Shown: piece by piece, positions 41,870 to 47,455 of the stretch
Layout of the letters: each line of letters opens with the position of its first letter
Numbering within the stretch: position 1 is the stretch's first letter
Assembly (NCBI GenBank): GCA_964016885.1
Contig: OZ024742.1
Coordinates: 133,610,001-133,674,000 of the forward strand
DNA length: 64,000 nucleotides
Origin: Eledone cirrhosa
Lineage: Eukaryota
Reading direction: 5' to 3'
Made by a program: the position numbers and the translations under genes
Notes under the pieces: model-generated
The model's database searches: none
The model's input: only the letters and a program-made list of their open reading frames with translations
What the model was told of the DNA's origin: nothing

Positions 41870-41872
<3 letters not shown>

Positions 41873-42292
41873 CAGAAGGGATATTCAATTTGTTGGTAAT
41901 TCAACAAATATAAATGTTTATAACCGATTCAGAGCACTCGACAGTTTCTCTGGAGTAAATATTCAATGATATGAAATAAATGGAAACTATATTTATAAAA
42001 CCATATTTATTCTATTATATATATTTCAAGGGAATCAACAACTTTGGTACGCTTTCATCAGATAACATAGAAAGTGTGTATTATAAATTTTGACATAGCC
42101 AAGGAAAATACCTTAACAGTTGAACTATTCCTTTCAACTGATAAGGTATGTTCCTTGGCTATTGCAACATTTATAAAACACACTTTGTATTTTAGCTGAT
42201 GAAAGCGTACCAAAGTTTTTGGTTCCCTTGAAATATATATAATAGATTAAATATGGTTTTATAAATATAGTTTCCCTTTATTTAATATCATG
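41870..42292. mobile_element. Fold-back HHR element, family B copy 1
   Basis: Arms about 41965-42125 and 42133-42292. CTGATGA at 42195 followed by GAAA-TATATA-TA. A roughly 95-bp unpaired tail lies on the left. Confidence 0.85.
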
Positions 42293-42306
42293 TATATATA
42301 TATATA

Positions 42307-42450
42307 GAGGAAGACCAAGGTTAACGTATGTTGGGCCCTAAGGACAGACACTGGTCTGTTGGAGACGCAGGACATGGCAGCGATAATGAGGGACAGAGAC
42401 CGCTGGAGAGAACTCATCCATGGATCTCGGGAATTTTACCCGCCCTAGAA
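42307..42450 (+). mobile_element. 3' end of an RTE-type LINE ORF within (TA)n
   Basis: GRPRLTYV..(frameshift)[37 protein letters not shown], a typical RTE C-terminus. Confidence 0.7.
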
Positions 42451-42460
42451 TATATATACA

Positions 42461-42536
<76 letters not shown>

Positions 42537-42558
42537 TATATACTATATACATACATGC

Positions 42559-42594
<36 letters not shown>

Positions 42595-42602
42595 ATACAT
42601 AT

Positions 42603-42699
<97 letters not shown>

Positions 42700-42700
<1 letters not shown>

Positions 42701-43500
42701 TTACTAAATTCTGTGGATGAATTTGTATCCTGATTCTCTTTTGAGATGAGTTTGAGTTATTTTTCCTAAATCTTTCGTGAACTACTTTTCCCATCTTGAC
42801 GTTATAGTCGCATATATGTTATAGAATGCCGTTAGCTTCTTGCTAAAACAATCTCTATACGTCTCATTTATATTTATACTCGGATTCTTTTCCTAGAGTG
42901 CTTAAACTATCTGTGACTAATCCCGGTTTTTTTCATAAAAACTGTGATAATTATTGCTATTTTGCTGAACTCATTGTAGAGTTTTTTTTCAGAATGTATT
43001 TGACTGCTATTTCTTGTAAATAAACATTCACTTCCATCCTGACGTCACTAGCCCCGTTTTTTCCTCATGTGCTTTTTCATAAATACACATGAAGGCGAAC
43101 TAGCCAGTTTTAGAATTCCCTTTTTCGGACTATATTACTGTGAGAGCCCTGGTTTTCTGTTGAGCTCTGCTGATGAATGATATTCCAACCGTGACCATCT
43201 CCACTGAAAGTTTTCATGAAATAGTCTTTTAAGACTATACAGAGCATTTGATGTTATTCCAGATTGAAGGATAAGTGTTTCAAACTTTGTTTTATCATGA
43301 GTTAAAGGTCTATAGATTTTTCCATGGATTTTACTAAATTCTGTGGATGAATTTGTATCCTGATTCTCTTTTGAGTTGAGTTTGAGTTATTTTTCCTAAA
43401 TCTTTCGTTAACTACTTTTCCCATCTTGACGTTATAGTCGCATATATGTTATAGAATGCCGTTAGCTTCTTGCTAAAACAATCTCTATACGTCTCATTTA
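42700..43500 (+). mobile_element. Retrozyme-like non-coding unit: 171-bp direct termini 630 bp apart, one complete HHR
   Basis: 42700-42870 and 43330-43500 differ at about 2 positions. No ORF. (TA)n on both sides. Confidence 0.85.
43164..43245 (+). ncRNA. Complete type I hammerhead ribozyme
   Basis: gctctg-CTGATGA-atga.../tcat-GAAA-TAGTCTT-tt-AAGACTA-TA-cagagc. Predicted cleavage after 43239. Confidence 0.92.
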
Positions 43501-43520
43501 TATATATATATATATATATT

Positions 43521-44117
43521 AAAAGCTTGTATTGAGTTAGAAACTCAAAATAATCTCATTACAGTAAATTAGCTCTAAGAAAAAGACTTTTCCGAGCCGT
43601 ATATAACTGAACAAAAGGAAAAAAACGAACACAGACATATATATATATATATAATATGTGTTCAAATTGTAATGGACCAAAATCGCTAAGGTGAAAAAAA
43701 TACTAACTACAGACTATAGGGTTTGCTGGACTCAATTTAAGAACAGATTAAGAAAAATGAATACAAACCAGTATTGTGGTAACTACCATCACCCAGGCGG
43801 TCTTTGATATAACCGTTTCGCAATATTATTTGTGAAGAGAAATACCAAATTCCAGGCTCATCAGTGGGCGGTGAAATTAGTATACTCCTCAATTCTACTT
43901 CTAAATCAAATAGAAAACTGGAAAGTGTGTGTATAGATAACGCACATGGTTCCCGAACTTAGCGTGTCGCGTAGACTTACGCCACTAAAAATATCAGCCG
44001 GGTCTACACGACATTTGAAATAGCTCTACGAATTAACGGAGCCGAATGTATCAAAAGCTTGTATTGAGTTAGAAACTCAAAATAGTCTTATTACAGTAAA
44101 TGTATATACATACATGC

Positions 44118-44187
<70 letters not shown>

Positions 44188-44248
44188 ATACACACACTTT
44201 CCAGTTTTCTATTTGATTTAGAAGTAGAAGTGAGGAGTATACTAATTT
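43521..44248 (-). mobile_element. HHR unit with 48-bp direct termini (offset 532) and a detached inverted piece
   Basis: 43521-43568 repeats at 44053-44100. 43874-43939 is inverted at 44183-44248. Confidence 0.75.
43788..43873 (-). ncRNA. Hammerhead ribozyme with mutated cleavage site
   Basis: accgccca-CTGATGA-gc...gc-GAAA-CGGT...ACCG-CC-tgggtgat (CC where TC is expected). Confidence 0.7.
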
Positions 44249-44324
44249 TAAAATACATACATAGATACATACAAACATACACACATATATACATACGCGC
44301 ACACACACAGATACCCCCCCCCCC

Positions 44325-44355
<31 letters not shown>

Positions 44356-44462: not shown

Positions 44463-44600
44463 ATAATTGTTTCTACATTTGGCACAAGGCCACCAATTAC
44501 CAGTGCATTACTGGTACCTTATTTTATCGACCCCGTAATGATGAAAGCAAAGTTAACCTTAGCGGGATTTGAACTCAGAATGTAAAGGGCTGAGTTCAAA
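44463..44600 (-). mobile_element. Truncated SINE
   Basis: Matches the 3' half of the SINE. Confidence 0.85.
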
Positions 44601-44787
44601 TCTCACCGAGGTGTAAATATAATAATACAAGGACGATTTGTTAAGACTCCTTTACGTATATTGATTGGTGACGCGCGTTTTTCTATTGATAAGCTCATGG
44701 TTCGATCTGTATCGATCCGGCCCGACTCTAAATCAAAAAGCCGTCGGGCCTCTGATGTTGTAATGACAGAAAACAAATAATAGCAGA

Positions 44788-44819
<32 letters not shown>

Positions 44820-44836
44820 TACACACACACACACAC

Positions 44837-44872
<36 letters not shown>

Positions 44873-44877
<5 letters not shown>

Positions 44878-45110
44878 TAAATGATCGGAGGCCATACTCT
44901 CCTGACACGTATTTATACGAGGAATATTAGTCAATTAGCCTGAGTCTCTCAGTCGGCAAAACCTAAAATAAACATTGAAAGTCCAAACAAACCGTTACAT
45001 TTGGAAAAATCGAATAATTTCCCCGAAAAAGATTTTCTCTTCATGATACAGGGGGCCTTCCGGACACGTGGTGTTGTTTCTTCGACGGCCGGCCTTTCTA
45101 TGATACCAAG
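44873..45110 (-). mobile_element. Family A copy, single arm
   Basis: Similar to 1335-1600 (acctaaaataaacattgaaagt...tttggaaaaatcgaataatttcc...atgatacaggg). Confidence 0.8.
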
Positions 45111-45899
45111 AAATTTGGCTGAAGTGTTGGTCAGTATAGGAAGTTACGAAAAAGGTCAGTAGCCTTTCCCCCTCTCCTCTCTATCAGTAGCTGTTGTAGT
45201 GGTAGTGACAGCGGCTGCTATAATAGTCCATATTGTCCAAAGGTCTGCAGCACTGAGTATTATAACCGATACCACGAATTAACTATATAAAAATGGATTA
45301 AAATACAATAAATAAACTAATCAATTAATTAATTAATTAAGAACAAAAGGACAGGTTATATTAAAGGGGATAGATATGTTGGAAAGAGAAAATTATAAAG
45401 AAAAAAATTTCATATTGCAGAAAATTGAAACGTAAAGAAATGGCTGACTATAGGCCTATGGTTTAAACCAGAGTGTATAAATGTAGATATTGTATAGTTA
45501 TAGTTTAATTGGTTCGAAATTGTTGGGAGCATTGTAGCCTTACTCCAGCAGATTCCCCGTTTGATTAAGCTCTACGGATTACACCAGATGTCCGATTCCC
45601 TGCCTCTCCGGAGACTCGATGAGCTGATCGTAAGAGTGAAATCTTACGATATATAAAGGGAATGTCCAGGAGTGGCTTCGGCGGTAGGATTCTTCCGTGC
45701 AACCTGCGTCAAATATCCATGAAACCGATCAACTCGGAGGACAACATGCCTGACCGACATGGAACTATTAGGCCATTCCTTTACCAATTAAGTGGTGTTG
45801 GCCAACCTAAGGTAACTTAACCCCACTCAAAATCAAGAAGTATGTTGAGGTGAGACGTTTTGTCTTAATTTTATAAAATATATCATATATATATATAAT

Positions 45900-45936
<37 letters not shown>

Positions 45937-46403
45937 ATAAGCACACACACACACGCGCACACACACACACACATATATATATACACACACACATACACAC
46001 AAATAATATGTATATATGTGTCTTGGAGAGGGTATGTGTGTATTTGTGTTCCTTTGTAGAGCATTTGAAATATGTATACTATAGCACTCGGTGAACTCGC
46101 TCCAACGCAGCATATTTTAAAGCTTTTTTCATTACATTCATTTCAATCTCCCGATTGATAGCATTAATTCATGTATTGATGTGAGAGCTAAGCAACGAAC
46201 AGCAATTACCCTATTTCATATGATCGCTATTACTGTTATATTTGGTTTGCTTCAAATACGTAGAAAAACAATTTCGCTAGTTTGAACGCCTAATTAGCAT
46301 AACATTCGTTACATTTTATACAAATACACGTCTGTAAATGAGTGTTGCAAGCTTAATATAAATCAGTTATATATATGTATATATATATATATATATATAT
46401 GTT

Positions 46404-46435
<32 letters not shown>

Positions 46436-46437
46436 TA

Positions 46438-46882
46438 AGCAGAAGGGATATTCAATTTGTTGGTAATTCAACAAATATAAATGTTTATAACCGATTTAGA
46501 GCACTCAACAGTATTTTGAAGTATAAAATATACAATGATATTAAATACATGGAAACTATATTTATAAAACTATATTTATTCTATTTTATATATTTCAAAG
46601 GTACCAACATTTTGGTACGCTATCATCAGATAAAATACAAAATGTTTTATAAATATTTGACATAACCAAGGATAATATACTTTAACGGTTCAAGTTATCC
46701 TGGAAACTTTCTAGTGATAACTTGAACCGTTAAAGTATATTATCCTTGGTTATGTCAAATATGTATAACACATTTTCTATTTTATCTGATGATAGCGTAC
46801 CAAAATGTTGGTACCTTTGAAATATATATAATAGAATAAATATTGTTTCATAAATATAGTTTCCCTTTATTTAATATCATTG
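46438..46882. mobile_element. Fold-back HHR element, family B copy 2 (HHR 46778-46838 on +)
   Basis: Arms about 46530-46700 and 46715-46882. tattttat-CTGATGA-..gtaccaa/ttggtac..-GAAA-TATATA-TA-atagaata. Confidence 0.88.
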
Positions 46883-46955
46883 TATATATATATATATATT
46901 TGTGTGTGTGTGTTTGTATTATATATATATATGTATGTATACATGTATATACAAA

Positions 46956-47009
<54 letters not shown>

Positions 47010-47028
47010 TAGATAGATATATATATAT

Positions 47029-47455
47029 ACGATATTAATAAATGGAAACTATTTATAAAACCATATTTATTTCATTATACATATTTCAGGGATACCACAT
47101 TAAATTATGGTATGCCTTCATCAGACAAAATACAATATATTACAGTTTTACAAATAGGTTTGACGTACCCTTTAAAATACAACCATTACTTTTGGAGGCT
47201 GTCTGGATAGCTATTTTAAAGGGTACGTCAAACCTATTTGTAAAACTGTTATATATTGTATTTTGTCTGATGAAGGCATACCATAATTTAATGTGGTATC
47301 CCTGAAATATGTATAATGAAATAAATATGGTTTTATAAATATAGTTTCCATTTATTAATATCGTATATATACTCCAAAAATGTGTCGAGTGCTTTATATC
47401 AGTTATAAAAATATTTACTTGTTGTATCCCAACAACTTTAAATAGAACTTTTGCA
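47029..47455. mobile_element. Fold-back HHR element, family B copy 3, opposite orientation (HHR 47259-47323 on +)
   Basis: Near-perfect arms 47029-47179 and 47212-47364. tattttgt-CTGATGA-agg..ataccata/tgtggtat..cct-GAAA-TATGTA-TA-atgaaata. The tail lies on the right. Confidence 0.9.

Follow-up and report, generated by a model that had tools for sequence, protein, structure and literature searches.

Hairpin repeats in an Eledone cirrhosa locus are probably Penelope-like element insertions folded anew at each insertion

Introduction

Penelope-like elements (PLEs) typically carry an inverted, 5′-truncated copy of themselves and a tail of 30–40 bp, and the origin of both the inverted repeats and the tails has been named as an open question (PMC8557442). 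The same layout has been described for Pen2a of A. vaga, for which self-priming on antisense RNA was proposed (PMC3846280), and the inverted repeats of D. virilis Penelope vary in size from copy to copy (PMC2377424). An inverted pseudo-long terminal repeat (pLTR) with a one-sided tail is therefore a known arrangement. Here, we analyse 64,000 nt of the Eledone cirrhosa genome (assembly GCA_964016885.1, contig OZ024742.1, positions 133,610,001 to 133,674,000, forward strand; hereafter the window), in which three hairpins of 422–445 bp lie in (TA)n tracts. We consider it probable that each is a 5′-truncated PLE insertion, with a tail-less inverted pLTR placed head-to-head with a tailed pLTR, and that it formed anew as it inserted, by the joining of two cDNAs, one primed on each strand of (TA)n.

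Results

The window is AT-rich and contains many microsatellites. Copy 1 (subfamily S1) occupies 41871..42292 and copy 2 (subfamily S2) 46438..46882, both with the element sense on the minus strand, while copy 3 (subfamily S3, the youngest) occupies 47030..47455 on the plus strand; all three are flanked by (TA)n. Read in the sense direction, they share one layout: an inverted tail-less pLTR arm, a junction, a sense pLTR arm and a tail of 84–90 bp. Positions within the element are counted from the tail end (0), negative values lying upstream. In copy 1, the inverted arm (42133..42292, +) extends to about -251 and the sense arm (41956..42124, -) is followed by an 85-bp tail (41871..41955, -), which lies between two fixed 3′ end sites and corresponds to the 5′ leader of the open reading frame (ORF) in the parent elements. 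In copy 2, the inverted arm (46716..46882, +) extends to about -270, the sense arm lies at 46528..46699 (-) and the tail is 90 bp (46438..46527, -), compared with 85 bp in relatives. In copy 3, the inverted arm (47030..47210, -) runs from -84 to -275, where it terminates in the CTATCC of an initiator (Inr)-like motif; the sense arm (47212..47371, +) starts at -244, and the tail is 84 bp (47372..47455, +). The arms are complementary over 159 nt (91%), 172 nt (95%) and 130+ nt (99%), with loops of 8, 16 and 32 nt in copies 1, 2 and 3, respectively. An earlier reading of the sequence (the original prediction) had described three hairpins of about 430 bp with differing loops, which we confirm; its one-sided tail is also present, although shorter than the roughly 95 bp claimed.

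The three copies represent three subfamilies, as copies 1 and 2 are 80–82% alike and copy 3 is 69–71% alike to both, while the genomic relatives of each copy show 93–99.6% identity. We searched the 3.0-Gb genome and took the best 30 loci per subfamily, each search scoring 40 of 710–3245 candidates (1630, 2825 and 3245 at first look), and added 30 loci obtained via the S3 tail alone, 19 of them new. Duplicates were removed (8 S3 loci; 11 in the tail sample). All samples were obtained via the tail because a genome search using the hammerhead ribozyme (HHR) core alone returned nothing; copies without the tail on both sides are thus under-sampled. Two unlinked inverted copies (L037 and L080) were left out of the arm-distance, doubleton and tree analyses, three with short arms (L016, L061 and L095) out of the trees and L008 out of the truncation analysis. 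Arm-reach values were corrected for L142, L130 and L001 (TA-edge or over-extension), and L012 stands at 264/264. At a divergence of 0.6–1%, S3 is a very young subfamily; it is also abundant, with near-intact ORFs.

The original prediction had proposed searching for an autonomous PLE that shares the tail and HHR, and such elements were found (L031, L114 and L115), with an ORF for a reverse transcriptase (RT) and a GIY-YIG endonuclease (EN). The S3 element L031, a unit of 4229 bp, comprises a pLTR (346 bp), a frameshifted ORF, a 1.8-kb 3′ untranslated region (UTR) and a second pLTR with tail; the tail sequence of its 5′ pLTR continues into the ORF, whose ATG lies 49 nt later. L114 consists of an inverted pLTR, a pLTR, an ORF with an unbroken match to 728 aa (96%), a 3′ UTR, a pLTR and the tail. 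L115 is a decayed full-length S2 copy, indicating an S2 unit of about 3.7 kb, and S1 is tied to the ORF only via L094, the inverted arm of which holds RT and EN pieces. Uninverted S3 copies continue upstream through common sequence, and pLTR tandems, direct or inverted, with a one-sided tail were seen in L031, L034, L113, L114 and L115. A protein search of the genome scored 90 places at 90–100% identity. Just upstream of the 5′ pLTR of L031, across a TA run, lies a near-perfect 233-bp hairpin of unrelated sequence (6901–7133 of that locus).

An AlphaFold model of the element protein (pLDDT 86) was compared with known structures using VIA-align. The best match was yeast telomerase RT (Z 17.4, root-mean-square deviation (rmsd) 4.7, 336 aligned); the DRT2 RT and a second telomerase lay within 1 Z of it, effectively a tie. 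Residues 613–715 matched the GIY-YIG domain of I-TevI (Z 9.9, rmsd 2.2, 88 aligned). YRDD is present in 27–28 of 28 aligned proteins, among which the GIY-YIG residues VVY..YVG, R, H, E and N are conserved. On the predicted structure, the single ORF is thus a telomerase-like RT with a C-terminal GIY-YIG endonuclease. With Pfam, the ORF pieces of the element itself yielded neither RT nor endonuclease, and across the 28 homologues RVT_1 was detected in 1/28 and GIY-YIG in 1/28; PDB sequence searches with the element protein were empty. A DDE_1 match in 1/28 homologues (E value 0.007) was set aside. Two Octopus annotations give fragments homologous to this ORF (P0044 and P0047) the name 'GATA zinc finger domain-containing protein 14-like', which is probably a misannotation.

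The motifs RWR, DKT, CNCRNKSNC, CDLC..E and N..CRH, as seen in L100, are kept in 24–28 of 28 rows, and the CCHH motif is absent. Tail ends enter at least 4 TA units in 97/109 cases, as do 45/49 matched inverted-arm ends. These motif diagnostics and the (TA)n target place the element in the Hydra clade; as its HHR sequence differs from that listed for Hydra-1_oBim, it would represent a new family within that clade. An assignment to Neptune was dropped because the Hydra diagnostics fit the motifs. At 4229 bp (S3) and about 3.7 kb (S2), the units exceed the size given for the Hydra clade, 'generally under 3 kb', which is a tendency and not a strict criterion (PMC8557442). Asparagine-rich disordered linkers lie between RT and EN in L100 (residues 475–509 and 582–594), which we liken to the N-rich inserts of A. 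vaga Penelopes (PMC3846280).

There is thus little room for doubt that the hairpins are PLE insertions. Rather than the separate family ('Family B') envisaged in the original prediction, they form the short end of a PLE size continuum that runs from 104 bp to 4.2 kb. Its view that they derive from a PLE and are not DNA-type transposable elements of the miniature inverted-repeat kind (MITEs) is borne out by the RT/GIY-YIG parents, the one-sided tail outside the inverted arms and the variable junctions.

Among 49 distinct S3 places, 37 are inverted and 12 lack an inversion. The junction differs in nearly every inverted copy (36/37 in S3, 13/13 in S2 and 14/15 in S1; 63/65 in total). Two pairs share a junction, L007/L022 and L085/L086; the latter S1 loci differ at linked variants in both arms, so their common junction arose twice. 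A clade of all inverted arms was rejected in S1 (approximately unbiased test, p-AU 8e-10) and S3, but not in S2 (0.053). The arm trees are poorly resolved, with same-copy pairs making up 11/25 cherries. S3 showed no fixed difference specific to one side; in S1/S2 three columns were flagged, but these are polymorphic or lie at the TA edge. The original prediction had proposed building such trees to see whether arms cluster by side, and its idea that the inversion is made copy by copy agrees with both the junctions and the trees: the fold is very likely made anew at each insertion.

These observations also bear on a rival reading, the movement of a DNA MITE (or of a hairpin amplified as one piece) by a transposase through recognition of the long inverted arms. 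Such an origin would suit the size of about 430 bp, the long inverted repeats, the TA flanks, the hundreds to thousands of candidates and the two junction-sharing pairs; any target-site duplication would be masked by the (TA)n. However, the repeats are not terminal, the 84–90 bp tail lying outside them, and RT/GIY-YIG sequence lies between these arms in those long copies that were examined (transposases were not searched for genome-wide). The variety of junctions, the 12 uninverted S3 places, the breadth of the size range, the rejection of a one-side clade in two of the three subfamilies and the double origin of the L085/L086 junction all speak against it as well. The MITE reading is largely refuted, and we assign it hardly any probability. 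A non-LTR retrozyme was rejected in turn, as the short copies are single or head-to-head and the tandems seen include the ORF.

The original prediction had further noted that arms are more alike within a copy than between copies. Inside the window this is trivially true because the copies are of three subfamilies, and the comparison is informative only within subfamilies genome-wide, where the claim held. Within- versus between-copy arm distances were 3.4 vs 4.8% (12 copies), 5.4 vs 6.7% (10 copies) and 0.6 vs 1.05% (21 copies), within being smaller than between in all three subfamilies (0/20000 permutations each). For the window copies themselves, the arms of copy 1 differ at 15/154 sites (9.7%) and its own partner ranks 12th of 12 within S1; those of copy 2 differ at 8/170 and the partner ranks first within S2; those of copy 3 differ at 1/146, and arms of several other copies are equally close or closer. 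Of the alleles found in exactly one inverted and one sense arm, 16 had the two arms in a single copy, against 1.1 expected, and 15 had them in separate copies.

This excess of likeness within copies, with some both-arm variants being private, could also arise if the insertions formed as proposed and gene conversion between the arms later upheld their likeness. Yet the divergence between arms of a copy amounts to 60–80% of that between copies, reaching 9.7% in copy 1, and for only 13/43 inverted arms is the unique nearest neighbour the other arm of that copy. Moreover, one of the both-arm variants is found again in L114, in its two arms, and therefore belongs to the source lineage. Conversion as the main cause appears very improbable, and the notion in the original prediction that arms are homogenized afterwards applies at most to a minor extent.

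The outer ends of the insertions are more constant than the junctions. All 34 linked S3 inverted arms whose outer end lies in the locus begin at -83 to -89, and tail-less uninverted ends also occur (L111 and the 3′ pLTR of L115). Public DNA contigs (four runs of one study, contigs only) exit the element at 47371 into TA repeats, with 50–73 contigs per run in three runs of one sample. In the S3 parent, sites 0 and -84 are each followed by TATA; in the S2 parent L115, TATA follows the tail end and the inner site reads CATAT in the 5′ pLTR, with TATA in relatives. There are nine TATA matches within the last 330 nt, so the motif is not sufficient. Among the 65 inverted copies, the full tail stands on both arms in L070 only. 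The 3′ flanks of L010 and L064 hold tail-to-tail neighbours across a TA run.

Each strand of an insertion begins at its flank with antisense sequence, one from 0 and the other from -84, the pattern expected of a pair of target-primed cDNAs, one per strand. The tail-less arm is longer in 20/36 S3 copies and the tailed arm in 12/36, and in L112 the arms reach 4055 and 227, a difference of 3.8 kb that a single fold-back cannot give; a single fold-back predicts one direction only. Microhomology of at least 2 nt was found in 13/20 gap-free junctions, against 17% expected (p 2e-6). The endonuclease may nick both strands of (TA)n, after which each 3′ end would pair with the UAUA at either RNA site, thereby priming a cDNA; the two cDNA 3′ ends would then be joined, via either 0–6 nt of microhomology or a short insert, and each would be copied from the other. 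On balance, we favour such joining of two cDNAs. A different PLE cuts both strands and extends them in vitro, with RT starts at two RNA sites bracketing the tail (PMC11167929).

The 5′ ends of the arms are also unevenly distributed. Among the 30 loci obtained via the tail, with 50 arm ends, the truncation rate was 2.6 per 100 nt at -263..-282, an interval picked after the data were seen, compared with 0.3–0.6 elsewhere (p 3e-5, 2e-4). Of 60 sense-arm starts in S1 and S2, where the query penalized shorter copies and not longer ones, 46 lie no further upstream than -272, 30 of these at -264..-272; the interval -273..-305 contains none, and the other 14 lie past it. The cliff falls at CTATCC, which is kept in all three subfamilies and forms part of TCACTATCC at -277 in S3. 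This belongs to an Inr-like motif, (T/C)CACTATCC, about 270–277 nt upstream of the tail end. TCACT has been called Inr-like in A. vaga pLTRs (PMC3846280), and D. virilis Penelope has an internal promoter (PMC2377424). Many cDNAs may therefore run off the RNA 5′ end at this motif, so that about 275 plus 190 nt, minus trimming, would give the MITE-like product of about 430 bp. The position of the cliff suggests, by a slight margin of plausibility, run-off at a transcription start. The combined mechanism, in which twin target-primed reverse transcription from two UAUA-marked RNA sites on doubly nicked (TA)n is coupled to strong-stop run-off at an internal transcription start, is more tentative, and we put its odds a little short of even.

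Several observations weigh against formation from two independently primed cDNAs and run-off. Arm lengths correlate (rho 0.42, p 0.01), and 11/36 S3 copies are symmetric within 15 nt against 5 expected (p 0.003), an excess that would follow from fold-back or from symmetric trimming of the centre. An exact walk found a gap and no clean joint in 17/37 S3 junctions, some of these being artefacts of nearby mutations, and 6/28 S1/S2 inverted arms start inside the usual site, at -104 to -224. L070 carries the tail on both arms (1261–1761), and L008 and L059 hold inverted tail pieces of 41–44 nt. Eight copies have both arms beyond -283, so some cDNAs pass the Inr-like motif, and the choice of the -263..-282 interval with the data in hand must be borne in mind. 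For the PLE studied in vitro, no homology between start site and target is reported (PMC11167929). Variants within copies are likewise ambiguous. Among the S3 both-arm variants, 3 of 4 recheckable ones are absent from all other of 53 loci, and such private variants fit a copied RT error or conversion equally well as an unsampled source; S1/S2 variants present in at least 3 copies were confined to a single arm in 31 cases and shared by the two arms in 11. Our guess at the cause is recurrent mutation.

Some of these points would sit well with self-priming in the same PLE. In this reading, a single cDNA (or antisense RNA, PMC3846280) would turn back and serve as its own template, one arm would be cut short by the endonuclease at the internal TATA (-84), and subsequent loss of central sequence would leave the arms unequal. 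The near-symmetric excess, the private variants in both arms and the recurrent junctions at self-complementary sites (L007/L022 and L085/L086) would all be explained, and Craig et al. (PMC8557442) ascribe the tail to EN-mediated resolution. Against this, either arm may be the longer, by as much as 3.8 kb in L112, tail-less uninverted copies terminate at the same -84 site, and the tail maps to two RT starts in vitro (PMC11167929). Self-priming as the general route is therefore unlikely in our view, although it keeps appreciable weight and fold-back may make some copies; the joining of two cDNAs remains our preferred reading.

The hammerhead motif was examined with a type I descriptor (helix I of up to 8 bp, CUGAUGA, stem II, GAA, self-complementary AUAUAUAU or AUAUGUAU, AUA). 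CTGATGA-stem II-GAAA is present in 6/6 arms of the window copies, with 6–8 of 8 helix I positions paired and helix III self-complementary. In copy 1, stem II is damaged in both the left-arm (42008..42069, -) and right-arm (42188..42249, +) motifs, the latter with 6/8 helix I pairs. In copy 2, the left-arm motif (46577..46637, -) has AAA in place of the cleavage triplet AUA and is predicted to be inactive, and the right-arm motif (46778..46838, +) has an intact descriptor. In copy 3, the motifs lie at 47068..47132 (-) and 47259..47323 (+), with cleavage of the latter predicted after AUA at 47315 (-140). Across the sample, the descriptor matched 123/135 arms, the misses including arms of insufficient length. 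Between subfamilies, stem II shows a double change from G-C to A-T (gtacc/ggtac vs atacc/ggtat) and a second from A-T to G-C. The presence of an HHR in both arms and the pairing-preserving changes of stem II, both noted in the original prediction, were thus corroborated, the second double change being new. By descriptor and covariation the hammerhead motif is real, self-cleavage being a prediction only.

Rfam returned no match at gathering score for the hairpins; at E≤10 there were 93 matches, comprising generic hairpin/microsatellite models below threshold and no hammerhead family. Minimum-energy folding recovered helix I and stem II together in 1/6 arms, which is expected for dimer-type motifs and lends no support. 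Junctions do not pile up at the predicted cleavage site (-140), and the 100–179 zone has the lowest truncation rate. Ribozyme-defined junctions were therefore rejected, and the 'ribozyme fold-backs' of the original prediction find no support, nor does a causal role in the fold for the HHR, which travels as part of the pLTR.

Several other repeats were seen in the window. An inverted repeat at 36597–39032 has 890-bp arms (98.7%), each with a hammerhead descriptor (36694, -; 38935, +; helix III ATGCGCAT), and a weak match to a Hydra-like EN lies at 37887–38165 (E value 6e-5); from its sequence, this is probably a longer inverted insertion of another PLE family. The inverted repeat at 48178–49359 (425 bp, 91%) has Hydra-like GIY-YIG matches in both arms, and the CTGATGA..GAAA motifs at 48079 and 60531 and the inverted repeat at 57582–60633 seem to be of the same family. 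Nested inverted repeats at 6590–8874 hold four hammerhead-like motifs (6673, -; 6838, -; 8106, -; 8671, +) with helix III ACCACTGGT, similar to the listing for Hydra-1_oBim. An inverted pair at 56371–57004, together with 9588–9764, carries short CTGA.GA..GAAA motifs (56437, -; 56935, +; 9670, -) and appears to be another small HHR-bearing family. Hairpins at 1331–1799, 6165–6552 and 10436–10823 (about 400–470 bp, near the size of the three copies) are older, with arms 72–77% identical. By eye, about 180 bp appear to be directly duplicated at about 42700–42880 and 43330–43510, with TA repeats where the duplication ends. Finally, an abundant short interspersed repeat, which we take to be SINE-like (resembling short interspersed nuclear elements), occurs at 13400–13997, 15253–15687, 20140–20345, 31185–31592, 32615–32820 and 44544–44601, partly as tandems of 213–236 bp (families D16 and D18–D20).

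Discussion

If correct, twin priming with run-off would explain, as a single step, the one-sided tail, the head-to-head inversion, the preference for (TA)n and the mass production of MITE-sized hairpins, and would displace the antisense self-priming proposal. As S3 is young and abundant, with near-intact ORFs, it is well suited to studying the origin of the inverted repeats and tails of PLEs. It is plausible that MITE finders file such hairpins as DNA transposons. A literature search on Penelope twin priming gave unrelated papers only, and among the papers listed (20 of 49) in a search on PLE hairpins as MITEs or foldback elements, none dealt with PLE hairpins by title or abstract start; most subscription papers lie beyond the coverage, so absence is not shown.

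MITEs of terminal inverted repeat DNA transposons (PMC8969392) share the size, long inverted repeats, high copy number and TA flanks of the elements described here, which differ in their non-terminal repeats, variable junction, uninverted siblings and RT-coding parent. Non-LTR retrozymes (10.64898/2026.07.22.740005) are likewise non-coding and PLE-related with a type I HHR, but form head-to-tail tandems, whereas the present copies are head-to-head truncation products of an autonomous element. The minimal hammerheads of PLEs (Cervera and de la Pena 2014, PMC4209133) have the same type I motif in pLTRs and a palindromic helix III suited to dimers, and in Schistosoma, pairs of motifs on opposite strands lie 100–700 bp apart. 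The motif described here has a longer helix I (8 bp) and a helix III of 4+4 nt, and the conserved G10.1-C11.1 pair is not core-adjacent (A-U or U.U).

PAc, the Poseidon element of Anolis (Frangieh et al. 2024, PMC11167929), resembles our element in its two start sites bracketing the tail (where the ORF region begins), AT-rich target, cutting and extension of both strands and dispensable HHR cleavage. In the accessible text, an inverted repeat is not derived from the two starts, and no start-target homology is reported, in contrast to the TATA at both sites here.

Canonical PLE units (D. virilis Penelope, A. vaga Pen2a and figure 2 of PMC8557442) show the same adjacent inverted 5′-truncated copy, per-copy repeat size, one-ended tail, Inr-like TCACT in the pLTR and partial tandems. 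Published tails are 30–40 bp, compared with 84–90 bp here. In the present element, short hairpins of similar size dominate, with 5′ ends gathered at one motif; the accessible texts on canonical units contain no comparable statement of dominant short hairpins.

The closest described relatives are the C-terminal EN+ members of the Hydra clade (Craig et al. 2021, PMC8557442; Hydra-1_Obim and Penelope-13_HM). They share RW(R/K), DKT, the CxCX5C linker, CxxC before E and CxH after N, the lack of CCHH, a C-terminal GIY-YIG, a hammerhead with short palindromic helix III and the (TA)n target. For Penelope-13_HM, the listing gives an HHR on each strand and, attached to the 5′ end, a 5′-truncated inverted copy. 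The element described here differs from these relatives in its 4.2-kb unit with 1.8-kb 3′ UTR, its 84–90 bp tail and an HHR unlike that of Hydra-1_oBim.

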